Below, piece after piece: positions 4,568-63,300 of a stretch of DNA of 63,300 nt. Position numbers and translations under genes: made by a program. The notes beneath the pieces are model-generated. The model saw only the letters and a program-made list of their open reading frames with translations. It ran no database searches and was not told the DNA's origin. Positions within the stretch are counted from its first letter, which is position 1; each line of letters starts with the position of its first letter. Source of the DNA: a virus (Duplodnaviria > Caudoviricetes); the IMG/VR virus record IMGVR_UViG_3300032280_000788, positions 1-63,300 of that record; one strand, 5' to 3'.

Positions 4568-4578
4568 AATAAAAAAGT

Positions 4579-4914
4579 ATGCCAGCGAAGAAAGTAAGCG
4601 CCGCGCCTAAAAAGCGGAGCGCGCCAAAGCCAATAGCGTTGCCGGTCACTCTTGAAAGATGGTACGCGGACCACGCCAATGTAGAGCAGCTACGTCAAGT
4701 ACTTGACAATCCTCAGTTCCGTATTGCTTGCGCTATCCTGCGCCAGCAGACCAAACCCACCGGATCAAATCTTGTGGCCGGGGACAACGCATTGGCTATT
4801 CGTCACGCGTATATTTCAGGCTTTTATGATTTTGAGGACCACCTGCAACAACTAACAGTTTTGCCAGCGGACCGAATTGAAATTCCCGAATGGGACTACG
4901 TTACACCACAATGA
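4579..4914 (+). CDS. Hypothetical protein between portal and scaffold
   Basis: 111-aa ORF whose stop overlaps the next start (ATGA). Confidence 0.7.
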   Translation: MPAKKVSAAPKKRSAPKPIALPVTLERWYADHANVEQLRQVLDNPQFRIACAILRQQTKPTGSNLVAGDNALAIRHAYISGFYDFEDHLQQLTVLPADRIEIPEWDYVTPQ

Positions 4915-6074
4915 GCGAACAAACAGCAACACCAGCAGCAGAGTCTCCAGCAGCGCCTACGGGGGACTTCTTTAGCGCAATCGAGCAGGCGTTTAATGCC
5001 GCGGAAACACCCGCTTCTGCAGAACCCGCACCGGCACCGGCACCGGAGACTCCTGTTTCCAGTAGCCAGAACACAGAACCCGTTACCGCGGACTCTGTGC
5101 CAGCGGTCGAGGACGGCACCAAAGCGGACAGCCCTTCTCTTCCTATTGATGAGAACGCGGATACTTCGGTATCCGAGTATAACGAAGACGGGCTAGTCGG
5201 CAAGTCCGGGCGACGCTTTAAGCAGCTCAAGTCCGAGCTAAAGAACGCCAACACCGAACTGCAGACTCTTAAGCAAACTCTTCAGGAGCGCGAGTCTCGT
5301 CTGCAAGAGCTGTCCGCTTCCAACGAGAACACCGAGCAGTTTCAGCAGCGCTTGGCCGAGTACGAGCAGGCCCTTGCGATCACCAAGCTCGAGGCCACCT
5401 CGGCTTACCAAGAACAAATTCAGGCTCCTATGGTCCAGCTTGTCGGGGCCGCAGAACTGATCGCAAAGCGTTATGAAATTGATAGCGATGAGCTCATTGA
5501 CGTGCTCTCGTATTCTGACAGAGACAAACAAGACGAGGCCTTGGACAACCTGCTGCAGGGGGTCAAGGAGCGCGACAAGCTCGCCATTTACGCTCTCGCC
5601 GAACAGGTCCCGCTCATTGTAGCGCGCAAGCAAGAGTTGTCCGACAACGCAGCCGCGGCGCTCGCCGAGCTCGAGCATCTTGACCAGCAAAAGCACCAAG
5701 AGCAGCTCGCTTCGCGACTGCAGGTTCGCAGAGAGGCCGCAGAACAAGTTCAAAGCAAGCTCGCCAGTAAGGTCCCGTTCCTGAAATCAATTGAGGGTCT
5801 TGACTTCGACAATATTGCCAAGCGCGCCGGAGAAGTAGACTTTGACGTGCTAGACACGCACAACAAGGTGTACAGCAAAATGGCCGGGGATATATTCCCG
5901 AAACTGGCTGTTGAATTCGCAAGCCTTCGTAACGAGCTCGAGGAAGCGCTCGACGAGCTCGAGGCGTTGAAGAAAGCCGAGCCCAAGGTTGGTGGCGGTT
6001 CTTCAAACGCAAACACGACAACCAAGTCGGCTGGCAACTTCCTTGATGCCATTAACGCGGCTCTTGGCGGTTAA
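4911..6074 (+). CDS. Scaffolding protein
   Basis: Acidic, Pro/Ala-rich N-terminus and long coiled coil directly upstream of the capsid gene; start taken at ATG 4911. Confidence 0.7.
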   Translation: MSEQTATPAAESPAAPTGDFFSAIEQAFNAAETPASAEPAPAPAPETPVSSSQNTEPVTADSVPAVEDGTKADSPSLPIDENADTSVSEYNEDGLVGKSGRRFKQLKSELKNANTELQTLKQTLQERESRLQELSASNENTEQFQQRLAEYEQALAITKLEATSAYQEQIQAPMVQLVGAAELIAKRYEIDSDELIDVLSYSDRDKQDEALDNLLQGVKERDKLAIYALAEQVPLIVARKQELSDNAAAALAELEHLDQQKHQEQLASRLQVRREAAEQVQSKLASKVPFLKSIEGLDFDNIAKRAGEVDFDVLDTHNKVYSKMAGDIFPKLAVEFASLRNELEEALDELEALKKAEPKVGGGSSNANTTTKSAGNFLDAINAALGG

Positions 6075-35655: not shown

Positions 35656-35730
35656 TGGAGCCCCTTGACGGAGTCGAACCATCATATCAAAATTACAAAT
35701 TTCGTGTAATAACCGTTATACTAAAGGGGC
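35656..35730 (-). tRNA. tRNA-Thr(UGU)
   Basis: Acceptor GCCCCTT/AAGGGGC + T + CCA; anticodon arm CGAAA-TTTGTAA-TTTTG; T-arm GATGG-TTCGACT-CCGTC. Confidence 0.9.
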
Positions 35731-43186: not shown

Positions 43187-46100
43187 ATGCCGCAGATTAC
43201 TAAAGACCCTCTGGGAAACGATGTCGAACTTTTGAACCTGACCGAGTGGTCAGATAAAAATCAAAAGGAACTTAACGAAGACACGCTTAACCAGTATGCT
43301 GGGTACGCAACCGGACAATTCTTAAGGACCGGACAGAAGCCAGAAGACTTTCAAGATAAACTTTATAGTCGTCTTTTTCAGAAGGGCCAGCAGGCCGGAG
43401 TCTTTCAACCGCAGGACGAAGCACAAACAACTCAGTTGTTTGAGAGCTTTGCCAACAAGCCATTAACAGACGACGCGGCCGACCTTGACTTGGTAAGCAA
43501 AAGCTTGCTGAACACAGAGCCTGAAAAAGCGGCTCGTGTTGCTGATGTTTACCAACGAGTTAAGTCCGGCCAACCAGATCCTAATCTGGAGCTAGACTTG
43601 GAAGACGTCAGAAAAAATATCGCTACACCAGACGTAATCCAACAAGCCCGTATTGGTTATGCCAAAGAGCGTGGGCTCGGCTTTATTGACTATCCAACTG
43701 GTGAGCCCGGCAAACGGGACGTTTGGATTAATACCCAAGCGACCCCAGACCGCAAGGCCGTATATGATACTTTGGATCTGGCACAGGGTATTGTTGACCC
43801 ACGTTCAGCAGCGCTGGCCGAGGAATGGATTAAAACAGATCCGGGCCGCAAGGTAAACCGAGCCGAGCAGCGTATTAATTCGGAAATCCAAAGCCTTCTG
43901 CAAGAGCGTTTAAGTCAGTCTGATCCAGACTCTGCGTTTCAGCAAAACATGGCAAGCGCTATTGAATACGCAACCCAGAGCACAGAAGAATTTGGTACTA
44001 GCGTTGGCGCAATTACAAAGGCTTCGACCGATAGGCTTGCGGAGACTAAACAAGTTATAGTGACTCCCGCGGCTCCAGTTTACGCAGTGAAAAGAGTAGC
44101 GAGTAATCGAGTAGCTGACGCGGCTATTCGTTCTGCGTACCGCAACCTTAAACAAACAGATCCGAATAACTCTCTTGTTACAGAATTTAGCGAAGATCAA
44201 TTTACTAATGCTGCGCAAGATTATGTCTTGCAGAGGATTAATACTCCGACCAACCAAGACGACCCGACAAAAAACTTTGTCACGCTTACGGACGGGACTC
44301 GCGCGCCGTTGGCTAGCGCGGCGACTTTGCCGAAGGAAAAGTTTAACCAAGCTATGGACGCGCTTGGTCTCGACAAACAAGAAAGAGCCGCTGCCTCAGT
44401 TATCCGTACTGGTTGGATTTCCGCAAATATTAAAGAAATTACGGATGCGCTATATGACTTTGAGTCTGACGAGTATGTTAATTTCTACGAGAAAAATAAA
44501 GACACCTATAAAAATGATGTTGAGCTGACAGAAGCATACTTGGACCAGATGAAACCGGACGCGCTGAAGACATTCACCGCAAAGACAAAAGGTGTTGGTC
44601 GGTCCATACCAATGGCGTGGGGTGACCTTTTGTTTGGTGCAGGTGCGGGAGCTTCTATTCTAGTTAACTCAGACGCGGGCGAAGAATTTTTCACTGGTTT
44701 GCTAACGCAGAACGCGGAGCAAGAGCAGCGTCGTGGTACATATACTAAACTTTACGGAAGCGAAATGGGGCTTGGCTACACCTTGGCTACCCAAGCTGCT
44801 CCGTTGCTAGCAGATATTGCTATTTCAAGAGGTGCCGCAACCTTAGTTAAGGGTGGAACTAAGGTCGCCGCAAGTGCAAACATTTTGGCTAGGTCTGCAC
44901 CAGTAATAGGTTCTACCGTCCGCAGCGCGGAAGATCTAATGTCTAAGACCGCAAAAACATTTATTGGTAATGCGATTAAACCAGAAACTAAAGGTTTTGT
45001 TAGTAATTATCTAAAAGGCTTCGCAGTTGGGGGCGCAGAAAAAAGTCCAGCGCAAATTCTGCGTGCGGTTCGCCGCGATATTGAAGAAAAGTTTGTAGCA
45101 GGTACCGCAAGAGCTACACAAATTGGAACTGGGTTTGCTCGAAGCGCGCAAGGGGCATACGTCAACACGTCAATGGGTATGCGTCAGGAAACAAATCCAG
45201 ACGGTACGCCAAAGTATACAGAAGAGCAGATTAAAGAAGCAGCTATAACAAATGCTCTGTACAGCGGCGGTATTACTGCTTTGGTAGAGTTTGGGTTTGG
45301 TAGAGTATTTGGTGAAGGTGCTGACGTCACAGCAATTGGAACTGCAAATCTTCGTCAAATTAAAAGCTATAGCAATCGCCTAACCAATGCGTTGGAACGC
45401 GGAGGTTTTGGTGGCCAAGAACTGTTTGATACCGTTAAACAGGTAAGCCAAGAAATCGTTAATAAAGGTTGGGGCGACGCGGTAAAACAAATCCCAGCGG
45501 AAGGATTAGAAGAATTTACTGAAGAGTTCACCCAGAACGTTGTTCAAAACCTTTTGAGCGACGAGCAGATTAATTTTAAGCAGGCGTTCACGCAAGGATT
45601 GCAGGCTGCTGTTGTTGGTGGTGTATATGGTGGTGCGTTTGGTACAACCAATAAGATTGGTCTGAGACAAGCAGACATTGCGCGTGACACATTTGCGGGT
45701 ACCGCGCAGGCTATTGAGCGAGACCTAATGGACCGCACGGTGGTCAAGCTGCAAGAGTCCGGCGGCAGCCCGCAAACAATCGCGGCGCTTCAGGACCGCA
45801 TGCGCGTGGCACAACGGCGCGGACAAGCGATCAGCGAAAATATTCCGGTGCGCGCGGCCAAGCGAGAAATTATCGACAGGCTTGACGCGACTAGCGAGGA
45901 GCCATTTGAAATTCCTACAGCCCCCGCTGAACCACCTGCTGCTAAAGCTCCGGTGACTATAACAAGAAAGGCTAAAAAGAAGGCCGAAGAGTTGGCAGTT
46001 AGCGAGGAAGAGCTTAGTTTGATTCAGCCAAGCGGTACCGATAAACAAGGAGCTCCACAAATTACACCGAACGATGTGCTTGCTTTTGTTAATCGGCGCA

Positions 46101-49100
46101 CCGAACAAATGGGTCTGGACCTTAATAGCCTCTTGCCGGGCCCGAATATAACTGCCCCCGAGGGCGGCTTCCAACTTGTCGGGGACGAACAAGCGGACAA
46201 CCCAGAAAACCGTACGTTCAATGATCTTAGCAATAGAGTTGTCGTAATCGACGGACTGCGCGGAAGGCTGCGCATTGAAGACGAAGGAGTTATTCTTGAC
46301 CCCGAGGACGGCTCGACACCTTTTGAGGTAACGCCTAACAAGGACCTTCCAGTCAAGGACTTTGAAGGCTTTAACACTTTGCTCCAAGAAGGGGCCGTGG
46401 TTAGCCCGCGTCGCCAAGCTCGTGAAGTATCCGAGGTTACTGATGGCGGTCAAATTGTTTATGGCGATACAACTTACGATCTGCCTGAGCAGCCGCTAAT
46501 TGCGAACGTTAAAAAAGACGACACCGGCGCTGTTGAGTCAATGCACATGCGTGTGTTTAATAGCAAAGGTTTGGCCACGTGGGTCTATGTTGCGGGTGAT
46601 AACGTACCAAAAGTGGAAACGGCCTACCGTACGCGCGGCCCAGAAGCTGTTACCAATCTTGCAAGCGCCGTAGAAAACGCGGGGCGCGAAAATACACGTC
46701 GTAATATTGCAGCGCAAACCGCTAAGACCAAGCAAAGCAAGCAACGCCGCAAAGACAAAAGAGCAAAGAACAACGCGCCTCTGGTAACAGACCGCGGGCA
46801 ACGTGCGGCTGAGTCTGCCCCGGACTATCGGGTTGCTAATATTAACAAGCCTAATGCCCCGCAACAACTCGTTGATGAGATCCGCGCAGTAGCTCTTCAG
46901 CTGGGGATTGACCCAGAAGTATTTACAGACGACGCGGAACTGTTTGCTATGGTCGCCCCAGACTTGGCGGCTGGTATGGACCTTGAAACGTTCACGCCGC
47001 AACAAAAGAAACAAGCGATTGATAATCTTCTCCGCAATGGAAACAACCCGGAAACACTTTTGGAGTATCTTGTTAGTGACGAGCTTTTGCCGCCGGTAAA
47101 GCGCGTGGAGCGGGACTCCAATCTTGCAGCGCTTCGTGCGCGCAACAGTAACCAAATTAGAAAGCACGGCATTAAACCCGGAGCAGACATTAAAACGGTT
47201 CTTGAAAGCGCGGCCCGTTCTGCTACCAGCAAGGTTCACAGACAAACGGCCAAAGAACTTCTTATGCTTGGCGCGGACAGTGTGCCTGTTTCGATCTCAT
47301 ATCTTCCGAATAACATGGGCATGGCCGGGGCGTACCTGCCGCAAAGCAACGCGGTAGTTATTAACTTGGCCAGCGATAACGGCGGCGGGGCACTAGACGC
47401 TTTGCTTCACGAGCTCGGGCACGCGGTTACTGACCGCGTTGTAACGGCCCCTAGAAACGATTTCGAGCAGCAGATTCGCGATAGGCTTATGTCCTTGCGC
47501 GCCGAGTACGCGGAACGCGCTAACGCAAAGTACGGCAACAATATGCCGCCCGACCTGCGGTATGCCTTGGAGGGCAGGCAGCGCGAATCTGAGCCCTTTA
47601 GCGAGCTAGAGGGTGCGCGCGAACTGGTCGCGCACTTCTATGGTTCGGCTAGGTTCCGGGAGCAACTAGTTGAGCTTAGCCCCAAGGGTGAGCGAAACTT
47701 TGTTCAGAAATTTATTGATCTTATTGCAAGCCTGTTTAGCGGGCAGCCGGTAGCCAGCAAGCAGTACAAAGAGCTGGCCGAACTTATTGCGGACCTTTCA
47801 AAGGCTAACCAAACAATTGGTGCCAACCCGTACGGCAGAACCGTTGGCCGTGTGGCCGCCAGCCGTGCGGGCGTTAACCACGAGAACAGGGTCGGCCCAC
47901 TGTTTGGCGTGCCAAACCCGCACTCGCGTGACGACCTTGAGTGGATTCTGCACCAAGTGCAAACGCTGCGGTATTCGGATCTTAGTAGCGAAGAGATTAA
48001 CGATATTATTGTTAACCAGAGGTTCGGTATGTTTACCGGGGAAAACCCCAACGACACACAGTTCCCTGAAAAAGAAAACAAAGAGTTCAACAAGAAGGCT
48101 ACCCAATGGCTGCAGGACCACGGGTACCAAGTAATTCCAATTGTTGGCAAGTATAACCGCGGCGAGAATAGCTTCCTTGTTCCCGGACTCACGGACCAAG
48201 ACGCGGTTGACGCGGCCAACGAGCTTGTGCAGGACTCCGTTGTAACCAACACAGGAATGTACTTTAAGGGTGGCATGTACCACCCACGCGTTGGCGAGTC
48301 TATTAACCAACCAATCGGGGCCGACGATGACTTCTTTAGCACGCTGCTTGACACCAACGGCGACGTAACAACAATCCGCGTTGACTATGACTTTGGCACG
48401 AGTCTGGATTCTGGAATCAAGTACAGCAAGGGCGACCAACAAGCCGCACCAGTTACAAAGATCGCAAGAAGCTTGGCCGCGCAAGGCGAGTTCCAAGTTG
48501 TCGAGGACCGAGAAATTAACAAGCCCATGCAGTTCGTTGACGGACGCCTTGCTGTTAACCCAGCTCTGGCCGAGGCCCGCTACGAAGCCTACGATGCCGA
48601 GGATACTTTGGACCTGCAAGAGCTCGACACTAGACTTGCTGTTGCTATTGGCTTGGCGAACGGATCAAACGGCCCGGACATTCAGCTTAGCTTTGAAGAG
48701 GTTGGGCTTAGCCCGGACTCAGTTATTGAGCAGGCCGCCTACAATACCCTGACCAACTCCGATCTGCAGGACTTGCTTAAGGTTAAAGAGCAGGCCAAAC
48801 AGTTCGTCGCGTCCGCGTACTACCACATTGCGCTGCGAAATAACGGCGATAACGAAAGGCTGGCCACCGCGCAAAACCGAGTGGCGGATCTTTACCGCTA
48901 CCTTCTGCGCGACGGCGCAGGGCTTCCAGACGCCCCAGAAAAATTCAACGCGCTGGATATCAGTCCGGTAACCATGCAGCTCGCAAGCCGCGCCGCTAGC
49001 CCGGCACCAATTATTCGCTACAGCCGAGCCGCTGTTAATATTGATCCAGTACAGGTTCGCGCGCAAACCAAGGCTGGCAAGGCTGTGGGCACGCGCAACC

Positions 49101-52100
49101 CAACATCCGCTAAGGCCACCGAGGACGGTGCTGACCCGAGCAACTTGGTGGATCTGGCGTCACTGAAGCGCAACCCGCAAGCGTACCGCAAGAACGCGCT
49201 GCTTCTGCTCGAGTACCCAATCGTTGCTCGCGAGTTCCCGGAGCTCGCCAAAGAATACGCAGAAATTCGTGGTGCTGTTCTTAAAGAGCAGGACAAAGCA
49301 AAAGCAAACGGCATCAAGATTACAGGCGCAAAAGATGCAGCGAAGAAAACACTCGCTAATTATCTTGGTGTTACCAAAGCAAAGGTGTCCGGCAAAATGC
49401 TGGAAGACGCAATTGAAAATCCTGAGTCCACATTTATTACCAAGGAGCAACCCGGAACTATTGCTGGGAACAAAGAAGCAAGGGCGCGCAATAAAGCCTT
49501 GGCCGAGTTCAATAAGAACCTAGACCAGATTAAAAAGTACGAGGCGGAAGGCGCTGTTCTTGGAACAAACAGCAGCAAGGCGCTCAAGACGTACACCGAT
49601 ACGCTTGACAAGATTGCCAAGGACCCGGAACACCCAATCGCTAAGCAAGCAGACGAGATTTACAACACACTAATTGAGGTTACCAAGAGCAACCTGCGCA
49701 TGCTAATGGATGTTTTCCCAAGCGATATCCGCGACATCGCCAACCTTTGGTACGATGGCGCAAACATTATTGCGCAGCAGTTCGCCGGGGACAACTACTC
49801 CCTTGAGCAGAGCGCAGCTGTGCTTGCCGTGTTCAGTCCACAAAAGGATTGGTTCATGAACGTCGAGCTGGGCAAGCGGACAATGGAAATCTGGACCGCG
49901 GACCAAGAGTACGAGTGGGACGAAGCAATGAGCGCGCGCTGGCTTATGCGCGGCGGTGAGCCAGAGCTTAAGGAGAACAAGGACGGGACCATTGGTTATG
50001 CCAAGGGCATTAAACCGGACCTTGACGAAAACGGCGAGCACCGCACAGCCGAGAACGGCATGCTGTTGTTCCACGGCTGGGGCAGCGAAAAAGTAAAAGC
50101 AAAAAGGCAGCAAGCGTTTGAACGGCTTCAGTCCTTAAAAGGTAAAAAGCTCAAGGATCTTAGTACGGAGCAACAGGCTTGGTTTGTACGCATGCGTGCT
50201 GAAACCAAGTATGCCACTAGCTTCCCAATCGTTAGCCCGGACGGACGCTTTGGTACGCCTAGCTCAAGCACCAATAAAAAGGGCGTTACCAAAGAAATCA
50301 AGCTGGCGTGGGGGACCTACGGCAGCATTGGCAAGGCTATTAGAATCCTTACCGCGCCGCCCAAAACCCAAATGAAAGTTATTAGCGACGAGCTTGGCGA
50401 CCAGCACAAGGTTCGTAGCTTCTACAATAACATTGTGGACCCGCAGAACGCAGACGGCCACGTGACCATGGACACCCATGCTATTGCGGCGCTGTTCTGG
50501 CAAGCGTTCAGCGGCAACAGCCGCGAGGTCGGCCAGAACTTTGGAACCGCGAACACCGCCACCGACAGCCTTACCGGCGTTGGTGGTCTTTACCCAGCAT
50601 TCGCAGAAGCGTACAGAGCGGTCGCCGCTGAGTACGGAATGCTCCCGCGCCAAGTGCAAAGCATTACTTGGGAAGCCGTGCGTATGTTGTTCACGGCCAG
50701 ATGGAAGAGTAAGCCTGAAAACGTTAATGGTGTGCGCGCCGTATGGGTCCGGTACCAGAACAACGAGATTACGTTGGAGCAAGCGCAGACCGCAGTGTTT
50801 GCAATGGCGACCAACGGCAAGGACTTGGCAACCGCCGTGGCCAATAGCAACGACGAAGAGCTTGGTCTTGGTTTCCCAAGCTGGGCCGACGTTACTGAAG
50901 GCCCGGCCCCGGCCGGGGTCGGCATTGCCCGCAGCCGTGCACTTACCCAAGATGACGAGGCTATGTTCGCGAACAGCGAACGACGCAACACATGGTCCAA
51001 AGCAGCCAAAGAGTTCTTGGGCGCGCGAGTTCATCCGTCAGAGATCCCAGTGATTCAAGGAAGATATATGCGAATTTCGGATATGCCGAAAGCTTTGCAA
51101 GATCTTGCTACAGTCGCAGAAGTTTCTAAGAAACTTCAAAGAGAAACTGATATGGCCGGTAATGACATCTTGGATATTGTTACCTCACCGGTTGAAACCG
51201 ATACGGCTTGGTACGATCTTGACGCGGCTTTCAGAAACAAGCTTAGAACTGAGTTTGATCTGCGGACTCAAGCTCTTGACCGCATTAAGAAACAAACCAA
51301 GGGCTTGTATACAGATTCGGAAATCATTACGTACGCAATGAACTTGCCTACGGTAACTGATATTGAATTTGAAGATACAAGAATTGGGATCCGCTTGGGT
51401 GTTAATCTTAGTATTGCCCGCAGCCGTGCAGCGCAACTGGACACTGACTACCTCGCGGCAGTGGAGAAGGGTGACACCGAGGCCGCGCAGCGGATGGTGG
51501 ATGAGGCGTTACTGGACACCGACATCATACCTACAAATCTGAAGAGAGCATTCAAATCATTCTGGAATGCAGAAGGTAAAATCAATGAAGCATGGAACAA
51601 CCCAGCTCAAAACGCGGCAAAGACCCGAGCCGCAGCAAAACTCACAAATCAATTAGATGTTCAGTTTGAAAACGACATGGAAGCGTCTACGCGCTTCTGG
51701 AGGAATATCAATGAGTTGAGACGACCCGTAACCTACGACGCAGAGCGCAACGTGATCCCGTTGAGCAAGCGGTTTGATCTTACCAAACAAGACATTCGCC
51801 ACAGCAAGGCCACAGTTGCAACTGGCCAGCCGTACTCCACAACAGCATTCCACGGCGGCACATACAAGCAGGGTGTGGGTGCGCTGCGTCCGAGCAAGGA
51901 AGGCGCTCTAGGATCTGGTTACTACGTCACGCCAAGCGTTGACTCAGCGAAGAAGTATGCGCGCGAGGGTAGCCTCGGAGCAGGCGTTACCGGCGGTAGC
52001 GTTTCGGTGTTCGATGTTAGCCTACAGAATCCATTGGTGTTTGAGTATAGCCAAGCGTATCCAGCCAATATATTCCAAGCTCTTGGTGTGGACCCAGACA

Positions 52101-55100
52101 AGGCCGAAGCAAAGGCCGAGAAGATCCTAGAAGAGAAAGGCTATATAGGTAAGCAGTTCCAGACCATGGGTCAGAAGCTCGGCTACGACGGAATCATTAT
52201 TGTGAACAACAATGGAGACGTGCTCGAGTTGGTCGCGTGGAGTCCGACATCGCTTAAGGATGGTTTCACAGACGCAAACATCGCACTTAGTCGCGCCGCG
52301 GTTAACGCTGGTGATGTAAAGTGGGATGTCGAAGGCATTGGGTCAACACCCACCCAAGCAGACATTAGTTATTTTGGTTTTGAGGTGCCGATGTTGCCGT
52401 CTGATTTTAGAAAGATGGTACCTAAAGGTGTTTCTGGCTCAGATACTAAAGAGTTTATTAAAAAGAAAATACAAGAGGGAGAAGCTATTGCGCCACCCTT
52501 CTTACGTGCGACATGGGACAAAGAACGTAAAGTATGGGTTGTTAATCCAGAAGAACACGAAGGTAGAAGCCGCACTGATGCTGCCGCTGAAATTGACCCC
52601 AGCGCACCAATGCCCGTGTCGATCATACTAAACAAAGGAATGCGAGCAAGAAGTCTTACAGATGAGATGCGTAATGCGCCTTTTGTTCTGGATAGTAATC
52701 TGGATGAAGTTGTATTTACACCAACACAAGCTGTCGCGCTTAGCAAGGCCGGGCTCGACACCGCGCCCAAGGCTTTCCGCGGCCGCATGGTCCAGCTGAC
52801 CCATTGGTCCAAGGCCACCGAGCTTAAGGAGACAGACCCAAGCGAGCACGGTAATGGTGGTGCTGGCAAAGAACTAGAGCGCCGCCGCGAGTACGGAGAC
52901 ATCTACATGCCGCGGACTTATTTCGGATACGACAAGTACCGCCGCGAGACTCAGGTTGGGGTCAACCGCTACAGCATGCTGGTTAACGGCGATACCCTGT
53001 ACGACTTGGACCGTGACCCACTAGACTTGTACCCGGACGCAGACGCCCTGCAGAAGGCTGGCTACGCTAGGTTCGATAACCGCGCTGCACTTACACTGCT
53101 CGAGAAAGCGGTTAAGGATGCAGGATTCAAGGGTTATGTTAGCACGTCTTACCAAGCCGGGGTCCTGTTCAATAAACAGAAGGTAACCAAGGTAAAGGAC
53201 GGCGACACTAGCTTGCCGCTGGCCGCACCAGCCAACATAGCCAAGAGCCCGCGCTACAGCAAGGCTCTGTATGCTATTACGAGCCCGCACGTTGAAAGCG
53301 CGTACGCGGTTAGCTTGGACGACCTGTTCATTAACAACGCCACCGGTGAATGGGACGCGGGTGGACCAGTTAGCCGCTTGTTCCGCGCCAGTGGAAACAT
53401 GGACCCTCGCTTGTTCGAGGCCGCCAAGTACCAAGAGCGTGGGTTGCGCCTTGCCAAGGCGCGGCTCAAGGATCTTACGCAAGCGTTCCAAGCCGCACTT
53501 AAGTCGGAACCAAACGCAGACTTGGACGACGTTAACTTGGCGCTCGGTAGCACAGAGCCAACCGTAGGCGCGGCGCAACGCGACGCTGCAGAAGCGGCCA
53601 AGCGCGCACGCATTGACAAGGCTAACGATGTATTTGATAGGGCCCCGGCAAACAAAGCTTACATGGACGCCGTCAATACGGCGCGTGCGAACTATAAGAC
53701 ACACCGCAGCAAACAAAAGTATACTGCAGAAGTTGAACAGGCTCGCGCTGATAGAAAAAATAGCCCAGAAATTCAGCAAAGGGACGCAGCAATTGCCGCG
53801 GCCGAGGCCCAGTACAGCAAGGATACCCAAGACGCGCGTGCACAAAACCTCGCGCCGGTACGCAAGGCGCAGCAGCAAGCACAGCTTAGGCTGGAGTTGA
53901 ACTCCCCGAAAACTGCAATTGCCATTGCCAATTTCCGCGTGGCCGTGGACAAGCTTAGCTCTGAACTTTCAGACGAGCTGGGCTCCGGTAATTCGCTTCG
54001 TGCAATTATTGACCAAAATCTTGGAGTCTATCTTACTCGCACATACCGCATCCATCAGGACGAAGGCTACGCGCAACGCGTACTGGAGGACAGCGAGTTC
54101 GCGCACCAGCGTGCGCTTGCCCGTAACTTCCTTGAGAAGAAGTGGATTGACAATACATACGAGCAGTGGCGCAAGGACGTTGCGTACGAGCCGTACACAG
54201 ACTCAGAAGTCATGTCGCTTGTGCGAGCTGAAGCGGCCTCCAAAGATGTTGGAACGCGAGAGCTCTACAAGTTTATTGACAAGCACAGCGCGACGCCAAA
54301 AGTATTTGGAAGAGCAACCAGCCGCACTGATCTTACAAGATTCATGCAGAAAGGTGAAGTGCCGCCGGAACTTCGAGTGCTGCTTGGCGAGGTACAGAAC
54401 CCAATTGAAAATGCGCTGCGCACTTACGGAAACCTCGCTCAGTTTCTTGGTACCCAGAGACTGCTCACGCAGTACACCAAGCTTGGCCTCGACAACAACT
54501 GGCTTGTAGCCGCCGAAGATGTGGAGAACGATCCAGTTAAGTACCGCGGGTATGCTCCGCTAGTAAGCACCACAGACACCAACGGCGGCGATCCACTATC
54601 CCAGTACTACGCGCAGCCCGAAGTTGTTTCTGCGTTCCAAACTATGTTCGCTCCGGCACCCGCTCCAGAAGGTAGCGATGCTAAAAAGGTTTGGGACTTT
54701 GTACAGCTTGGTGCTAGCAGAACAATTGGTGCCAGTATGGCGTTCCTTACACTAGGAAGCGCTGGCTTCTTTGTCCGCAACCTTGTGAGTATTCCAATCT
54801 TTGCGTCGGCTAACGGGTTTGTTCCTACGCCTAGCAACATTGTTACAGCGCTTAAAGGTATTAAACAAGTGTACGGCCGCGACATGGACGGACTCGGAGC
54901 CGACATGGTTATGTTGGGAATCTCTGAAGGCAGCATGGTTACACAAACTATGCGCGACTTTATCCGCGGAACAATTGACGACCCTGAGCTGATTACTAAT
55001 CAGATTGAGTCTATGCTCAAAGAGGTCGGCACCCCGGGCAACTTCCTTGCCAAGGCGTGGAAGGGCGCGAAAGTTACAGTCGATGGTCTTGCAACCCTTA

Positions 55101-56437
55101 ACGATCAAATTGATATGCTCTACAAGGCCGCTTACTGGGCGCACGAAGTTGATGTGCAGACCAAAGCTAACAAGTACAGGAGCGTTCCGCTAACACCACA
55201 GCAAATTAAGCAGGAGGCAGCGCGTGTTGTCAGGCTCACCACGCAGGGGCGCGAGCGCGTGGCTCCGATTGCTAAAGAGTTCCAACGCAGCGGGCTTGGC
55301 ATGCTGTTCAATAGCTTCTTCCGCTTCACCGCAGAAATGTTCCGCCTTCCAATCGCGACGATCCAGCTCGGAGTAGACGAAGTGAAGAGCGGAAACCCAG
55401 TGCTCGTGGCGAGGGGCCGTAACAGGCTAATTGGACTTGGCACTACTCTTTCTGTCCTTGGGTACGGTGCTCCGGCCCTGCTGAAAGAAATGTTTGAGGT
55501 CGAAGACGAGGAAGAAGAAGGTGTTCGGGCTGCTCAACCACCTTGGGCACGCGATTCCAACTTGTTCATTACATCAGACCCAGCGGAAGGAACAGTAACA
55601 ACATGGGATCTCACCTACATTAACGGATTTAGTCCGATCACAGACGCCGTCGGCCGCAGCATTCACCATGCAATCAACGGCCGCTGGGAGAAAATACCGG
55701 GGGTCATGGCTTCGTCCTTGGCAAAGAGTTTCCTGAGCCCTCAGATTGCAGTGGAGGCTTTCGCGCAGGCCGGTATGAACAGAGACGACCGCGGCGGTGC
55801 GCTGTGGTTGGAGGACGATTCATGGGGAACCAAAGTTGGCAAGACCCTGAAGCATGTGGCCAATAACGCGTTCAAGCTCCGCACCCCGTTCCAGCTCTGG
55901 AAAGCCTACGAAGCTTACACCAACGGCGGCGTCTACGACAAGGACGCACGCTTCGAGAAGGCCGCTGATCTTGTGATCAATGAGTTCAAGCCGTTCCGTA
56001 TTCATACCAATAAAACAGAACAGATGGCCAGACGCGCGTTCGGTGGTCTTAAACAACAAATGGACGCGGCCAGAGAAACTCTTGGTGAGCTTAAGAGCTA
56101 CGAGCAGCTAGACAAAAAGCGCGTGGACGAAGTTTATGATCGCTATGAAACATCGTTGATCGCGATTAACGAAAGGCTCAACAAGTACGCGGCCGGGTTC
56201 GGGAAGCTGGGAATGAGCTACGCTGAAATGGAAAGCCAAGCCGACGATGTGGGCATTAGCAAGCGTCGCTTCAAGGACGCCGTGCATTATGATCGGGTCG
56301 AAAGGTTTAAGCCTAGCGAAGACGCGTACAAGGACTACTTGCGCGTTGGCGGAGAAGAGAACGGTGCCGCGCGTGTGCAGTACCTTAACGAGGCCGTGTA
56401 CGCTAGGCCGCAGTACTTGAAATTAAACACAAAATAA
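43187..56437 (+). CDS. Giant polyvalent/internal virion protein (4416 aa)
   Basis: Uninterrupted ORF. Zincin HELGH (~47408); ADP-ribosyltransferase-like AFHGG...GSGYYVT...AKKYA...GYDGII...E (~51840-52260); LPD38-like C-terminus. Confidence 0.85.
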   Translation: MPQITKDPLGNDVELLNLTEWSDKNQKELNEDTLNQYAGYATGQFLRTGQKPEDFQDKLYSRLFQKGQQAGVFQPQDEAQTTQLFESFANKPLTDDAADLDLVSKSLLNTEPEKAARVADVYQRVKSGQPDPNLELDLEDVRKNIATPDVIQQARIGYAKERGLGFIDYPTGEPGKRDVWINTQATPDRKAVYDTLDLAQGIVDPRSAALAEEWIKTDPGRKVNRAEQRINSEIQSLLQERLSQSDPDSAFQQNMASAIEYATQSTEEFGTSVGAITKASTDRLAETKQVIVTPAAPVYAVKRVASNRVADAAIRSAYRNLKQTDPNNSLVTEFSEDQFTNAAQDYVLQRINTPTNQDDPTKNFVTLTDGTRAPLASAATLPKEKFNQAMDALGLDKQERAAASVIRTGWISANIKEITDALYDFESDEYVNFYEKNKDTYKNDVELTEAYLDQMKPDALKTFTAKTKGVGRSIPMAWGDLLFGAGAGASILVNSDAGEEFFTGLLTQNAEQEQRRGTYTKLYGSEMGLGYTLATQAAPLLADIAISRGAATLVKGGTKVAASANILARSAPVIGSTVRSAEDLMSKTAKTFIGNAIKPETKGFVSNYLKGFAVGGAEKSPAQILRAVRRDIEEKFVAGTARATQIGTGFARSAQGAYVNTSMGMRQETNPDGTPKYTEEQIKEAAITNALYSGGITALVEFGFGRVFGEGADVTAIGTANLRQIKSYSNRLTNALERGGFGGQELFDTVKQVSQEIVNKGWGDAVKQIPAEGLEEFTEEFTQNVVQNLLSDEQINFKQAFTQGLQAAVVGGVYGGAFGTTNKIGLRQADIARDTFAGTAQAIERDLMDRTVVKLQESGGSPQTIAALQDRMRVAQRRGQAISENIPVRAAKREIIDRLDATSEEPFEIPTAPAEPPAAKAPVTITRKAKKKAEELAVSEEELSLIQPSGTDKQGAPQITPNDVLAFVNRRTEQMGLDLNSLLPGPNITAPEGGFQLVGDEQADNPENRTFNDLSNRVVVIDGLRGRLRIEDEGVILDPEDGSTPFEVTPNKDLPVKDFEGFNTLLQEGAVVSPRRQAREVSEVTDGGQIVYGDTTYDLPEQPLIANVKKDDTGAVESMHMRVFNSKGLATWVYVAGDNVPKVETAYRTRGPEAVTNLASAVENAGRENTRRNIAAQTAKTKQSKQRRKDKRAKNNAPLVTDRGQRAAESAPDYRVANINKPNAPQQLVDEIRAVALQLGIDPEVFTDDAELFAMVAPDLAAGMDLETFTPQQKKQAIDNLLRNGNNPETLLEYLVSDELLPPVKRVERDSNLAALRARNSNQIRKHGIKPGADIKTVLESAARSATSKVHRQTAKELLMLGADSVPVSISYLPNNMGMAGAYLPQSNAVVINLASDNGGGALDALLHELGHAVTDRVVTAPRNDFEQQIRDRLMSLRAEYAERANAKYGNNMPPDLRYALEGRQRESEPFSELEGARELVAHFYGSARFREQLVELSPKGERNFVQKFIDLIASLFSGQPVASKQYKELAELIADLSKANQTIGANPYGRTVGRVAASRAGVNHENRVGPLFGVPNPHSRDDLEWILHQVQTLRYSDLSSEEINDIIVNQRFGMFTGENPNDTQFPEKENKEFNKKATQWLQDHGYQVIPIVGKYNRGENSFLVPGLTDQDAVDAANELVQDSVVTNTGMYFKGGMYHPRVGESINQPIGADDDFFSTLLDTNGDVTTIRVDYDFGTSLDSGIKYSKGDQQAAPVTKIARSLAAQGEFQVVEDREINKPMQFVDGRLAVNPALAEARYEAYDAEDTLDLQELDTRLAVAIGLANGSNGPDIQLSFEEVGLSPDSVIEQAAYNTLTNSDLQDLLKVKEQAKQFVASAYYHIALRNNGDNERLATAQNRVADLYRYLLRDGAGLPDAPEKFNALDISPVTMQLASRAASPAPIIRYSRAAVNIDPVQVRAQTKAGKAVGTRNPTSAKATEDGADPSNLVDLASLKRNPQAYRKNALLLLEYPIVAREFPELAKEYAEIRGAVLKEQDKAKANGIKITGAKDAAKKTLANYLGVTKAKVSGKMLEDAIENPESTFITKEQPGTIAGNKEARARNKALAEFNKNLDQIKKYEAEGAVLGTNSSKALKTYTDTLDKIAKDPEHPIAKQADEIYNTLIEVTKSNLRMLMDVFPSDIRDIANLWYDGANIIAQQFAGDNYSLEQSAAVLAVFSPQKDWFMNVELGKRTMEIWTADQEYEWDEAMSARWLMRGGEPELKENKDGTIGYAKGIKPDLDENGEHRTAENGMLLFHGWGSEKVKAKRQQAFERLQSLKGKKLKDLSTEQQAWFVRMRAETKYATSFPIVSPDGRFGTPSSSTNKKGVTKEIKLAWGTYGSIGKAIRILTAPPKTQMKVISDELGDQHKVRSFYNNIVDPQNADGHVTMDTHAIAALFWQAFSGNSREVGQNFGTANTATDSLTGVGGLYPAFAEAYRAVAAEYGMLPRQVQSITWEAVRMLFTARWKSKPENVNGVRAVWVRYQNNEITLEQAQTAVFAMATNGKDLATAVANSNDEELGLGFPSWADVTEGPAPAGVGIARSRALTQDDEAMFANSERRNTWSKAAKEFLGARVHPSEIPVIQGRYMRISDMPKALQDLATVAEVSKKLQRETDMAGNDILDIVTSPVETDTAWYDLDAAFRNKLRTEFDLRTQALDRIKKQTKGLYTDSEIITYAMNLPTVTDIEFEDTRIGIRLGVNLSIARSRAAQLDTDYLAAVEKGDTEAAQRMVDEALLDTDIIPTNLKRAFKSFWNAEGKINEAWNNPAQNAAKTRAAAKLTNQLDVQFENDMEASTRFWRNINELRRPVTYDAERNVIPLSKRFDLTKQDIRHSKATVATGQPYSTTAFHGGTYKQGVGALRPSKEGALGSGYYVTPSVDSAKKYAREGSLGAGVTGGSVSVFDVSLQNPLVFEYSQAYPANIFQALGVDPDKAEAKAEKILEEKGYIGKQFQTMGQKLGYDGIIIVNNNGDVLELVAWSPTSLKDGFTDANIALSRAAVNAGDVKWDVEGIGSTPTQADISYFGFEVPMLPSDFRKMVPKGVSGSDTKEFIKKKIQEGEAIAPPFLRATWDKERKVWVVNPEEHEGRSRTDAAAEIDPSAPMPVSIILNKGMRARSLTDEMRNAPFVLDSNLDEVVFTPTQAVALSKAGLDTAPKAFRGRMVQLTHWSKATELKETDPSEHGNGGAGKELERRREYGDIYMPRTYFGYDKYRRETQVGVNRYSMLVNGDTLYDLDRDPLDLYPDADALQKAGYARFDNRAALTLLEKAVKDAGFKGYVSTSYQAGVLFNKQKVTKVKDGDTSLPLAAPANIAKSPRYSKALYAITSPHVESAYAVSLDDLFINNATGEWDAGGPVSRLFRASGNMDPRLFEAAKYQERGLRLAKARLKDLTQAFQAALKSEPNADLDDVNLALGSTEPTVGAAQRDAAEAAKRARIDKANDVFDRAPANKAYMDAVNTARANYKTHRSKQKYTAEVEQARADRKNSPEIQQRDAAIAAAEAQYSKDTQDARAQNLAPVRKAQQQAQLRLELNSPKTAIAIANFRVAVDKLSSELSDELGSGNSLRAIIDQNLGVYLTRTYRIHQDEGYAQRVLEDSEFAHQRALARNFLEKKWIDNTYEQWRKDVAYEPYTDSEVMSLVRAEAASKDVGTRELYKFIDKHSATPKVFGRATSRTDLTRFMQKGEVPPELRVLLGEVQNPIENALRTYGNLAQFLGTQRLLTQYTKLGLDNNWLVAAEDVENDPVKYRGYAPLVSTTDTNGGDPLSQYYAQPEVVSAFQTMFAPAPAPEGSDAKKVWDFVQLGASRTIGASMAFLTLGSAGFFVRNLVSIPIFASANGFVPTPSNIVTALKGIKQVYGRDMDGLGADMVMLGISEGSMVTQTMRDFIRGTIDDPELITNQIESMLKEVGTPGNFLAKAWKGAKVTVDGLATLNDQIDMLYKAAYWAHEVDVQTKANKYRSVPLTPQQIKQEAARVVRLTTQGRERVAPIAKEFQRSGLGMLFNSFFRFTAEMFRLPIATIQLGVDEVKSGNPVLVARGRNRLIGLGTTLSVLGYGAPALLKEMFEVEDEEEEGVRAAQPPWARDSNLFITSDPAEGTVTTWDLTYINGFSPITDAVGRSIHHAINGRWEKIPGVMASSLAKSFLSPQIAVEAFAQAGMNRDDRGGALWLEDDSWGTKVGKTLKHVANNAFKLRTPFQLWKAYEAYTNGGVYDKDARFEKAADLVINEFKPFRIHTNKTEQMARRAFGGLKQQMDAARETLGELKSYEQLDKKRVDEVYDRYETSLIAINERLNKYAAGFGKLGMSYAEMESQADDVGISKRRFKDAVHYDRVERFKPSEDAYKDYLRVGGEENGAARVQYLNEAVYARPQYLKLNTK

Positions 56438-59195: not shown

Positions 59196-59221
59196 TGTTG
59201 TTGGAGCGGATTGGTTGGCTT

Positions 59222-59283
59222 CCGCGACCGCCCCGCCGAAGCGGTTTGGTTTCGACCCCAAGCCAACGGGTCTCATCAGGCGG
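59222..59283 (-). ncRNA. Type I hammerhead ribozyme A
   Basis: CCGC-CUGAUGA-GACCC/GGGUC-GAAAC-stem III (UUCG)-GUC^GCGG. Confidence 0.9.
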
Positions 59284-59430: not shown

Positions 59431-59455
59431 ATGTTTAGAGCGGATTGGTTGGCTT

Positions 59456-59517
59456 CCGCGACCGCCCCGCCGAAGCGGTTTGGTTTCGGCCGTTGCCACA
59501 CGGCCATCATCAGGCGG
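59456..59517 (-). ncRNA. Type I hammerhead ribozyme B
   Basis: CCGC-CUGAUGA-U-GGCCGU/ACGGCC-GAAAC-stem III-GUC^GCGG. Confidence 0.9.
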
Positions 59518-59812: not shown

Positions 59813-60016
59813 TTAGTAGTGGGTTAAGTGGGTGATGTGGCTCTTGTAGAAGCCGCCTTGGTTGTACCATTGCAGGGTGCACTCGCCGTTGCTGTAGATC
59901 TCGACCAGTCGCCCGAAGCGGACCGGATAGAAGACCCCCTCAACGCGTTCTTTGGGCGGCGGCGGTAGAATCCTATAGGATTCTCCAACGCATAGTTTTA
60001 TAGGGATGTTTGTCAT
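59813..60016 (-). CDS. Hypothetical early protein (67 aa)
   Basis: ATG follows the leader of hammerhead C. Confidence 0.65.
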   Translation of the reverse strand: MTNIPIKLCVGESYRILPPPPKERVEGVFYPVRFGRLVEIYSNGECTLQWYNQGGFYKSHITHLTHY

Positions 60017-60042
60017 TTTTGTTGGTGCGGATTGGTTGGCTT

Positions 60043-60104
60043 CCGCGACCGCCCCGCCGAAGCGGTTTGGTTTCGGCCGTTGCCACACGGCCATCATCAG
60101 GCGG
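60043..60104 (-). ncRNA. Type I hammerhead ribozyme C
   Basis: Identical to copy B over the core and stems. Confidence 0.9.
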
Positions 60105-60965: not shown

Positions 60966-60991
60966 TGTTTTTGGAGCGGATTGGTTGGCTT

Positions 60992-61043
60992 CCGCGACCC
61001 CTTGCGGGGTTTCGGCCGTTGCCACACGGCCATCATCAGGCGG
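60992..61043 (-). ncRNA. Type I hammerhead ribozyme D
   Basis: Same core; minimal stem III AC-CCC-GCAA-GGG-GU with a GNRA loop. Confidence 0.92.
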
Positions 61044-61125: not shown

Positions 61126-61361
61126 GCTGTTGCGAGTTTGCTGAGTTTTGCCACGGCATCACGGATGCCGCCGTAGCCACTGTACGATTTCCCGCCGATT
61201 GGATCGGCACGGTCGATTGCATACCAGTCGCAGACGCTGGTGTATTTGCGGAGTCCGCATCCGGCGCGTTCGCTGATTGTCTTGCGCGTCACTTGGATGT
61301 TGTAGGAGTCCGTGATGTAGACCGCTGTGCCTTTGAAGCTGCTGATTTTGGTTGCTTTCAT
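61122..61361 (-). CDS. Hypothetical early protein (79 aa)
   Basis: ATG follows the leader of hammerhead E. Confidence 0.65.
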   Translation of the reverse strand: MKATKISSFKGTAVYITDSYNIQVTRKTISERAGCGLRKYTSVCDWYAIDRADPIGGKSYSGYGGIRDAVAKLSKLATA

Positions 61362-61387
61362 TGTTGTTGGAGCGGATTGGTTGGCTT

Positions 61388-61454
61388 CCGCGACGACCAG
61401 CACCCCGAAGGGGCTGGTCGTTTCGGCCGTTGCCACACGGCCATCATCAGGCGG
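61388..61454 (-). ncRNA. Type I hammerhead ribozyme E
   Basis: Same core; stem III GACCAGC-CCC-UUCG-GGG-U-GCUGGUC. Confidence 0.92.
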
Positions 61455-61866
61455 CTTGGCGCAGGCGGCGCGCGATGTGGCTCGCGCTGGTGCCTGCTAT
61501 GCTTTCGACCAGTCTGCCGCTGTCGCGGGTGGCGGTCCAATATACACCGGAGCCCTGCCCAGTCGCTCCGGTGAACCGGAAACGCCAGCTAGGAAACAGC
61601 GCGGTGAGAGCCGCGTGCTCTGCCCACTCAACGCTGTGGCCCACGGCAATATTCTCTATCCATGCGTCAGCGGCTCGTTGTGAGCGGCTACAGGCCCAGC
61701 GCAGGCCGCTTTGGTAAGCGTCAGCGTTTATGCTGGGGTGCAGGTACCAAGTGGACCTATGGGCGGCGGAGTGGATGACTAGGCCGCCGCGGCTCTTAAG
61801 AGCGGAGCAGGGTCTGTACGGGTGATTGGTTGGTTCCTTACGATTTTGGAATTGTGTTTGGCTCAT
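61447..61866 (-). CDS. Hypothetical early protein (139 aa)
   Basis: ATG follows the leader of hammerhead F; stop lies in the hammerhead E core. Confidence 0.65.
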   Translation of the reverse strand: MSQTQFQNRKEPTNHPYRPCSALKSRGGLVIHSAAHRSTWYLHPSINADAYQSGLRWACSRSQRAADAWIENIAVGHSVEWAEHAALTALFPSWRFRFTGATGQGSGVYWTATRDSGRLVESIAGTSASHIARRLRQAA

Positions 61867-61892
61867 TATTGTTGGAGCGGATTGGTTGGCTT

Positions 61893-61959
61893 CCGCGACG
61901 ACCAGCACCCCGAAGGGGCTGGCCGTTTCGGCCGTTGCCACACGGCCATCATCAGGCGG
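61893..61959 (-). ncRNA. Type I hammerhead ribozyme F
   Basis: As copy E with an A-U to G-U change in stem III. Confidence 0.92.
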
Positions 61960-62116
61960 CGTTGAATCTGTTAACAATGTTCTGAAGTTCGGCCCTGTAG
62001 TCGTCGCCACATTCGGACCCGAAGGATTCAAGGTCGTCAATGAGTCCACTCGCGAGGGCTAGCAATTCGGCCACGCAATTGGTGGCCACATCAATGGTTG
62101 TGTCAATTTTGTTCAT
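61952..62116 (-). CDS. Small acidic protein (54 aa)
   Basis: ATG follows the leader of hammerhead G; stop lies in the hammerhead F core. Confidence 0.65.
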   Translation of the reverse strand: MNKIDTTIDVATNCVAELLALASGLIDDLESFGSECGDDYRAELQNIVNRFNAA

Positions 62117-62142
62117 TATTGTTGGTGCGGATTGGTTGGCTT

Positions 62143-62208
62143 CCGCGACGACCAGCACCCCGAAGAGGCTGGCCGTTTCGGCCCTTGCTACGGGGCCTCG
62201 TCAGGCGG
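62143..62208 (-). ncRNA. Type I hammerhead ribozyme G
   Basis: CCGC-CUGACGA-GGCCC/GGGCC-GAAAC-stem III-GUC^GCGG. Confidence 0.92.
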
Positions 62209-62620
62209 GTTGTACAGCGGCAAGGAACGCCTCGTCGCTGGCGCCATTGGCTCGGGCGGCATCGAGCGCAACCTTGAGTTCGGCCGCGGCCTGCTCGAAT
62301 GTGACGAACAGGCTGTGCTTGTACTCGTATCCCTGCGGGTTTGGCCCGTCCAAGCGGCCGCGGCTCGAGGCCTTTTCGAGGACCGCGATCGAGTCCTGCT
62401 GAAGCACCACCGCGAGGTGGTGCGCGTGCCATCCGTCGGGGGCAAACCCTACCACAACAAGCGTGGGTTGCGGCTGGCCTTCCCACTCGCTTTCGTGCAG
62501 GATCGAGGCGTGAGCCTCAAAGCCCGTTGCGGCGAGCGCGGCGGCGGCGTCTTTACGGATGATTCTCTCGCCAGTCTTTTCGACCAGCAAGCCGATATTT
62601 AACTCGATTTCCTTTTTCAT
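62201..62620 (-). CDS. First early gene; possible SAM lyase-like protein (139 aa)
   Basis: LNIGL...W.G...PTLVV...LA..L.QDSIAV resembles phage SAM lyases; stop lies in the hammerhead G core. Confidence 0.55.
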   Translation of the reverse strand: MKKEIELNIGLLVEKTGERIIRKDAAAALAATGFEAHASILHESEWEGQPQPTLVVVGFAPDGWHAHHLAVVLQQDSIAVLEKASSRGRLDGPNPQGYEYKHSLFVTFEQAAAELKVALDAARANGASDEAFLAAVQPA

Positions 62621-62625
62621 TTTTT

Positions 62626-62712
62626 TGGTGCCCTCTGCCTTGGCCAGACTTGGGACTGGCACCGCGCGGCTTGCACCATTGCAGGCTTGTTCGCGGTGGT
62701 GGCATTGCACCA
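62626..62712 (-). ncRNA. Type P1 twister ribozyme
   Basis: P1 UGGUG/CACCA; C^AA; P2 UGCC/GGCA; T2 AC/GU; P3 CACCGCG/CGCGGUG; P4 CCAG/CUGG; L4 UCCCAAGU; 3' GAGGG (T1). Confidence 0.88.
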
Positions 62713-63169
62713 TGGCCCGTTACACTGCGGGCCAAAGATCGGGGACTGGGAAAGAACTGGGACCACCGCTTGGAACTCGCCGCCGGACCCCGTGCTGGGG
62801 CGGCGGCCGATCCGCTTTTGTGGGTGACCTTGCGGCCAACGAAAATCAATGTAGGGCAGGATCCGTTTTTGTCACCAACTTTTTTCGGAAAAGTTTGCAG
62901 GGTAGCACAAAACCCCTTGTTTTATAGCTTATTGACCCCGAAAATATTTTTCAAGAAAATGTCAAAAAGATGTTTTGTATACGCTTTTTTGCGAACTACT
63001 AGGAGTTTAGTATTTGAGCGAAATGTCGTTTTGTATACACCGCCAGAGCAAAGCAGGATGGTTGCATTTTGCGCAACTTTCCTGCGCCTAGCAACCAGCA
63101 ACCAGCGCCAAGACTACACTCGCCAAGTGTAGCGTTTCGGGAGCGTGTACCACCAGCCAACCAGCCCGG

Positions 63170-63300
63170 GCCGATCCACCTGCCGATCCACCTGCCGATC
63201 CACCTGCCGATCCACCTGCCGATCCACCTGCCGATCCACCTGCCGATCCACCTGCCGATCCACCTGCCGATCCACCTGCCGATCCACCTGCCGATCCACC
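63170..63300. repeat. 12-bp tandem repeat GCCGATCCACCT, ~11 copies (right end)
   Basis: Perfect copies running to the end of the window. Confidence 0.98.

Follow-up and report, generated by a model that had tools for sequence, protein, structure and literature searches.

A probable type-P1 twister ribozyme in the leader of a phage gene block with seven hammerhead units

The window analysed here, a stretch of 63,300 nucleotides that corresponds to one complete tailed-phage genome of 63,300 bp with terminal repeats, carries on its minus strand (62712-62626) what is very probably a genuine type-P1 twister ribozyme. It lies in the 5' leader of the cistron that opens a block of small orphan genes. 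The sequence reads as an initial annotation, made from the letters alone, had described it, and three lines of evidence speak for the assignment: the match to the Rfam model RF03160 is significant, the changed T2 pair covaries across the family, and pairs are compensated within the phage lineage. Exactly 5 nt (62625-62621) lie between helix P1 and the ATG at 62620-62618, which is the gap given in that annotation. By analogy with the family, this RNA would probably cleave itself at C62707/A62706.

Results

Parts of the twister and match to the covariance model

The element consists of the following parts:

62626-62712, minus strand: type-P1 twister ribozyme; full-length match to RF03160, pairs kept in relatives, predicted cut C62707/A62706
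62712-62708 with 62630-62626, minus strand: helix P1
62707, minus strand: C at position -1
62706-62705, minus strand: AA of the cleavage loop
62704-62701 with 62639-62636, minus strand: helix P2
62700-62699 with 62649-62648, minus strand: pseudoknot T2, AC with GU
62698-62692 with 62666-62660, minus strand: helix P3
62659-62656 with 62647-62644, minus strand: helix P4
62655-62648, minus strand: loop UCCCAAGU
62635-62631, minus strand: GAGGG
62667-62691, minus strand: structured 25-nt insert closing P3, with an internal loop and an apical hairpin of 6 bp whose loop is of the AAUGG type

The initial annotation had named a search with the Rfam twister-P1 model as a check, and the match obtained is significant. 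All 68 model positions (1-68) align at 62711-62627 with 44.5 bits, the E-value being 1.3e-8 in a scan of 601 nt, 2e-7 in 9.3 kb and 1.4e-6 in the 63.3-kb window on both strands. The order of the elements (P1, P2, P3 hairpin, P4 hairpin, 3' strand of P2, 3' strand of P1) places the termini in P1 and leaves P3 closed by a loop, i.e. it is the P1 permutation. The capitals of the Rfam consensus (AA, G-UCCCAAG-, the AA before P2 and GAGGG) are matched, with the exceptions of the C at -1 and one compensated base in T2. The cut site between 62707 and 62706 is predicted by the alignment to this model. The base that the initial annotation proposed to mutate, the G with which GAGGG begins, would by our own count correspond to G45 of the rice twister, which acts as general base (PMC6154101).

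The score lies below the curated gathering cut-off of Rfam (67.2 bits), and the element is absent from the default listing. This shortfall fits the 25-nt insert in P3, as the model takes 26 nt of P3 as an insertion. Since only one of the seven twister matches in other viral records (five records) scores above the cut-off, the latter is strict for phage twisters. The minimum free energy of the element amounts to -38.2 kcal/mol (z = -1.06), and 29 of 200 shuffled sequences fold equally well; the structure of minimum free energy recovers P1 to P4. As the energy is thus unremarkable, the case for the twister rests on the match in sequence and structure together with the comparative data.

Conservation and covariation in related phages

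A nearly identical twister is found in three viral records (L002/L003 and L006), scoring 45 bits in each. Two metagenome loci, L132 and L133, were obtained by a search with the gene 1 protein (65% amino acid identity) and have the same sequence around the element. In the lineage represented by the window, L002, L006 and L132, 124 of 124 cells of the pair table are paired. The comparison with the one diverged branch (L132/L133), on which the covariation in the lineage rests, reveals changes on both sides in 11 of the 31 twister pairs and on one side in none, compared to 0-1 in controls with slid partners. These double changes are distributed over P1 (2), P2 (1), P3 (4), the apical hairpin of P3 (2) and P4 (2). 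RNAalifold finds the same twister helices without being given them and also predicts independently the apical hairpin of the P3 insert, whose pairing is kept through its two changes on both sides in L132. The letters of T1 are complementary (CCC at 62654-62652, GGG at 62633-62631), invariant here and fixed by the search pattern, so that covariation would be invisible at these positions.

The conservation is strongest in the RNA element itself. Compared to L006, 87 of 87 positions are identical in the twister, 131 of 138 in the leader, 220 of 250 in the upstream region and 339 of 420 (81%) in gene 1. A contig from a lake-water metagenome differs at 5 positions in about 184 nt over 62645-62829 versus 30 positions in 224 nt over 62451-62674. 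The indels in relatives fall into the loop of P3 and the linker between P4 and P2, both of which are variable across the family. In L132, the A that follows CCC in the conserved loop CCCAAG is replaced by a C, and, judging from this replacement, the constraint could act on the fold more than on catalysis. On the level of sequence, the comparison demonstrates strong purifying and compensatory selection on the twister architecture in the present phage lineage. A blastn search with 61300-63300 against the GenBank phage collection gave no match to a cultured relative.

Two further candidates were rejected. Nine nucleotides with the letters of P1 and the cleavage site (62713-62705, minus strand) recur without change inside the P3 insert (about 62679-62671) and could have been a second 5' half of the ribozyme; this copy is not conserved, as L002 reads CAG, L006 has one U more and L132 shows other letters. 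An alternative long-range helix in the fold of the single sequence was, by inspection, not conserved in L006.

Comparison with other viral twisters

Pattern scans of a viral contig collection yielded at least 121 pattern matches in at least 119 loci in addition to the window. A filter that demanded four of four P2 pairs and at least three P1 pairs was passed by 46 twisters, 43 of them distinct, among the matches listed. In these 43 twisters among the matches listed, 94.4% of 912 cells are paired compared to 69.6% after shuffling and 31-41% with slid partners, a count in which P2 and the inner three pairs of P1 are paired by the filter and only P3, P4 and T2 are independent. Taken separately, P3 is paired in 96.4% and P4 in 96.5% of cells (43 twisters among the matches listed).

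The positions of T2 were left free by the filter, and they bear out the compensatory change (AC with GU) that had been pointed out in the initial annotation. Of the 43 twisters among the matches listed, 30 have G-C at the variable pair, 12 have A-U and 1 has a mismatch; the second pair is C-G in all 43 of them. Thus, with A-U in 12 of 43 twisters among the matches listed, AC with GU is a recurrent compensated variant of T2. In a deep mutational scan of the rice twister, any single change of the corresponding T2 G killed the activity and the neighbouring T2 pair tolerated any Watson-Crick pair (PMC5113685). The same annotation had set the C at -1 apart from the usual U. U is indeed usual, being present in 39 of the 43 twisters among the matches listed; C occurs in the other 4 and is therefore rare, not unique, and 3 of these 4 come from the present phage lineage. 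The uridine at -1 is termed "less conserved", and a construct with 2-aminopurine at this position was active (PMC5408937).

The relation of twisters to start codons was assessed in the same 43 sequences among the matches listed, which are non-independent. An ATG-started open reading frame (ORF) of at least 60 aa begins within 40 nt in 15 of these 43, compared to 16.8% of random positions. When the first start in frame was used, 7 of the 43 among the matches listed were within 40 nt compared to 9.2%, without clear enrichment; this test is inadequate since the true start of a gene is often a later one in its frame. A permissive count placed 26 of the 43 among the matches listed within 37 nt of a start, at a high chance background. 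The general link of viral twisters to start codons is weak.

Clusters of ribozymes were also seen in other viral records. Within 2.8 kb (2499-5234), L004 carries a twister of 70.5 bits, another of 32.1 bits and a twister-sister whose 39.2 bits exceed the cut-off of its own model (34); in G004, a distance of 1.6 kb separates two twisters, and G003 is also among the records with such clusters.

Leader, candidate promoter and gene 1

The region around the twister comprises these features:

62201-62620, minus strand: gene 1, 139 aa, assigned to no family; ATG 5 nt past P1, UGA stop forming U4-G5-A6 of the core of hammerhead 1
62714-62733, minus strand: covarying hairpin one base 5' of P1 (RNAalifold; two pairs changed on both sides in L132/L133)
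62734-62841, minus strand: conserved structured leader (131 of 138 positions identical in L006) with covarying helices
62848-62875, minus strand: weak candidate for a sigma-70-like promoter, GTGACA, 16 nt, TACATT

The hairpin at 62714-62733 is possibly the optional P0 stem of twisters, whose position we take to be directly 5' of P1. The candidate promoter (62875-62848) would put the start of transcription near 62841, an assignment that is weak: two sigma-70-like sites were seen versus 1.4 expected in shuffled sequences, i.e. chance level. In L006 and L132, the promoter-like hexamers are the same distance apart although the spacer between them has diverged. A transcript that starts near 62841 would release the leader 62734-62841 as a 5' fragment. 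An invariant unpaired stretch is present within the leader (62758-62746, minus strand), and the released fragment might be a separate RNA species.

RNAalifold further predicts a helix of 6 bp between a U-rich stretch (62844-62839) and the AUG-AAA of gene 1 (62620-62615), which encloses the twister; one change on both sides in L006 keeps the pairing. This helix, which would mask the start codon, is a lead only, as 62844-62839 may lie upstream of the real start of transcription. GAGGG was also considered as a Shine-Dalgarno site and rejected: 22 inspected gene starts of the phage are without such a motif upstream, which makes this role of GAGGG unlikely. Searches of Pfam and PHROGs with 10 proteins of the block gave nothing usable with regard to the functions of these small genes.

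Hammerhead units downstream

A repeat of about 100 nt in front of seven later genes turned out to consist of hammerhead units on the minus strand, each with a CUGAYGA core, hairpins for stems II and III with GAAA between them, and GUC as the cleavage triplet:

62127-62208, minus strand: hammerhead 1 (type I), predicted cut 62147/62146, 20-nt 5' hairpin, ATG at 62116
61877-61959, minus strand: hammerhead 2, predicted cut 61897/61896, ATG at 61866
61372-61454, minus strand: hammerhead 3, predicted cut 61392/61391, ATG at 61361
60976-61043, minus strand: hammerhead 4, predicted cut 60996/60995, ATG at 60965
60027-60104, minus strand: hammerhead 5, predicted cut 60047/60046, ATG at 60016
59440-59517, minus strand: hammerhead 6, predicted cut 59460/59459, ATG at 59430
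59206-59283, minus strand: hammerhead 7, predicted cut 59226/59225, ATG at 59195
62203-62201, 61954-61952, 61449-61447 and 59512-59510, minus strand: UGA stop of the upstream gene within the hammerhead core

The units were identified by pattern and fold checks, type I being defined by a CUGANGA core, GAAA, a UH triplet, closed stems II and III and an open stem I. The pattern matches seven times in the window compared to 0.01 matches expected. The Rfam hammerhead models gave no match at E ≤1 in 9.3 kb and none at E ≤10 in a 141-nt scan of one unit. In five of the seven units of the window, an extra U is present between A9 and stem II. Among the 23 distinct units from the window and its relatives, the core is invariant, whereas there are 7 variants of stem II and 14 of stem III; all of the former and all but one of the latter fold as predicted.

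After each predicted cut, 29-30 nt remain as a leader, which begins with a hairpin of 20 nt and continues with a C/A-rich spacer up to the ATG. In four of the seven units of the window, an ORF with an ATG and at least 54 aa ends at a UGA that is U4-G5-A6 of the hammerhead core, so that the coding sequence overlaps stem I and the catalytic core at these hammerheads; the same arrangement is found in most additional units scanned in relatives. The layout as a whole is kept, with a twister followed by 6, 6 and 7 hammerheads in the three viral records and a twister followed by gene 1 and 2 hammerheads in L132/L133.

The invariant tail after the cut (e.g. 62146-62127) can form a hairpin of 5 bp that uses the 3' strand of stem I, possibly as a refolding after cleavage. 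Several stem II variants have a loop II that is complementary to the loop of this tail, AAGCCAA, and the two loops could possibly form a pseudoknot between stems I and II of the kind described in PMC3088659.

Genome context

The terminal repeats are an array of a tandem 12-nt unit at both ends of the record (63170-63300 and 1-130), and a second family of short direct repeats adjoins this array at 150-260. This repeat-rich non-coding region between divergent gene blocks is possibly an origin or a packaging region. The genome encodes a DNA polymerase, a helicase, a primase, a terminase and tail proteins. The product of an ORF of 4,416 aa (43187-56437, plus strand) has matches to DUF7178 and DUF3293 and a sub-threshold match to an ADP-ribosyltransferase domain (ART-PolyVal), and it looks like a giant polyvalent-type phage protein. 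A single tRNA gene (35659-35730, minus strand) is the sole Rfam match above the gathering score in the window.

Discussion

Proposed processing of the transcript

Based on the chemistry of the family, the RNA would cut itself during synthesis between C62707 and A62706. The upstream leader would then depart with a 2',3'-cyclic phosphate, and the mRNA of gene 1 would keep an A with a 5'-OH inside the compact fold with its two predicted pseudoknots, followed by five unpaired A's and the AUG. Given the known polarity of type-P1 twisters, the cut should leave nearly the whole fold on the downstream RNA; as PMC8782182 reports, a twister 3' fragment is able to retain the two pseudoknots, with a 5' end that appears to be buried. 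Since P1 is described as dispensable for cleavage (PMC5408937), the 5-bp P1 may open after the cut, upon which the unpaired stretch before the AUG would grow from 5 to about 10 nt. In line with the initial annotation, we infer that the fold could be protective, that release of P1 could open the initiation region and that the genes may be "early".

Judging from the context, the twister and the seven hammerheads would cut one long transcript into mRNAs of a single or a few genes, whose 5' ends would be defined, structured and insulated from the sequence upstream. Hammerheads and P1 twisters are opposite in polarity, as the body of a hammerhead goes to the upstream product and that of a P1 twister to the downstream product, which fits a twister at the one position where an upstream cistron is absent. 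As to the main benefit of cleavage, we tentatively suggest that it could lie in a 5' end that is defined, protected or insulated, and that the expression of gene 1 would gain from this.

Alternative readings

A twister that cleaves might also act in the negative or in a temporal manner, the product with its 5'-OH being a substrate for decay that limits or times the expression of gene 1. We consider this rather unlikely. It has a parallel in glmS, likewise a self-cleaving RNA in a bacterial 5' UTR that leaves an mRNA with a 5'-OH, where self-cleavage followed by the action of cellular RNases can lower expression (PMC6765202); moreover, the fold lies 5 nt from the AUG in genes without Shine-Dalgarno motif, and a stable fold could therefore hinder initiation. 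glmS, however, needs a metabolite cofactor for the lowering of expression, whereas neither a ligand pocket nor a feedback logic is evident here. In addition, ribozymes in front of at least eight genes resemble general processing and not a gene-specific shut-off, and the 5' end of the twister 3' fragment is reported to be not only buried but also poorly accessible (PMC8782182).

It is improbable that the twister fold serves as a structural or regulatory leader, e.g. in protein binding or translation control, and either does not cleave or cleaves too slowly. The rare C at -1, the altered adenine in the conserved loop of L132 and the score under the Rfam cut-off would agree with such a role, and roles beyond catalysis are suggested by the P3 insert, which is conserved and covaries, as well as by the P0-like hairpin and the structure of the leader. 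On the other hand, all capitals of the Rfam consensus are present save for the compensated T2 pair and the -1 base. The former is of the compensated type found in 12 of the 43 viral twisters among the matches listed, and the latter is the less conserved position at which 2-aminopurine still allowed activity (PMC5408937). Seven hammerheads with intact cores on the same transcript further argue that cleavage is the selected activity.

An extension of the processing scheme, which we regard as a long shot, is an operon fully punctuated by ribozymes in which cleavage licenses translation and the two classes are chosen for their opposite polarity. The cut would turn the helix 62844-62839/62620-62615 together with P1 into a weak duplex of two pieces, which would fall apart and free the start codon. 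As the UGA of the upstream gene lies inside the hammerhead core, the arrival of the ribosome and the folding of the ribozyme would compete, and the translation of one gene would be coupled to the release of the next.

The remaining two readings are refuted. The element could be an N-terminal coding extension of gene 1 from an ATG at 62713 with an incidental likeness to twisters, as the frame is open from there into gene 1 (170-aa ORF, 62201-62713), but a 1-nt indel (L002/L003) and a 2-nt indel (L006) inside the element make the upstream peptide entirely different at an RNA identity of 99-100%, and the substitutions in L132 compensate pairwise. A chance match to the twister consensus, for which the score under the gathering cut-off and the unremarkable folding energy could be adduced, is at odds with the E-value of 1.4e-6 over the whole window and with an element that is conserved and covaries.

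Relation to known systems and significance

The twister predicted here shares with the type-P1 twisters of RF03160 (rice Osa-1-4 and environmental sequences) the helix P1, the N^AA loop, P2, a two-base L2 element for T2, the optional P3, a P4 whose loop G-UCCCAAG-Y-C provides T2 and the complementary letters for T1, the AA before the 3' strand of P2, GAGGG and the termini in P1. It differs from them by the A-U in one T2 pair, the C at -1, the structured and covarying 25-nt insert in P3, the covarying hairpin directly 5' of P1 and the score under the curated cut-off.

A related arrangement is described in PMC3088659 for the haloviruses HF1/HF2, where a hammerhead variant lies 13 nt before the first early ORF and a 5' end was mapped near the cut. 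As at our locus, the virus has dsDNA, and a self-cleaving ribozyme is situated near the start codon, in the leader of the cistron that comes first on a multi-gene transcript. The halovirus ribozyme is of another class, its body stays with the upstream fragment, the host is an archaeon and the 5' end was mapped, whereas our cut is predicted from the sequence. Arrays of hammerheads that flank single genes or short gene blocks in prophages are described in the same paper, and bacterial twisters and hammerheads co-occur near phage genes according to PMC6765202 and PMC5408937. These prophage clusters likewise comprise several ribozymes within a few kb among small phage genes and have been proposed to cut long phage transcripts down to mRNAs of gene length; in contrast to them, the locus described here is part of a complete genome, with the twister first, seven hammerheads 29-30 nt from their ATG and stop codons that are often in the core. 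The systems of eukaryotic viruses with RNA genomes and cap-independent translation also have a small ribozyme just upstream of an ORF and link cleavage to translation, whereas here a DNA phage and bacterial translation are concerned.

Synthetic insulators of the RiboJ type are engineered parts in which a ribozyme and a short hairpin precede the translation start and provide a 5' end independent of context. By analogy, these insulators appear to have a natural counterpart in the seven hammerhead units, each with its hairpin of 20 nt.

A search by title and abstract, in a literature lacking most subscription journals, found no described phage operon of this kind. The co-occurrence of twisters and hammerheads, the hammerhead arrays of prophages and the leader hammerhead of HF1/HF2 are already in print, and the locus is clear, not unprecedented. 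Specific to the lineage are the compensated T2 pair, the C at -1, the structured insert in P3 and the hairpin that precedes P1. The layout of the operon is unusually explicit.

The Rfam gathering cut-off for twisters and the Rfam hammerhead models miss phage ribozymes that look real. The biological role of bacterial and phage twisters and hammerheads is termed elusive in PMC6765202 and PMC5408937. With a complete genome and a layout that is conserved in relatives showing compensatory changes, the locus is an unusually clean natural case, and it offers mutable constructs with which one can ask if self-cleavage sets the 5' ends, the stability or the translation of mRNAs without Shine-Dalgarno motifs.
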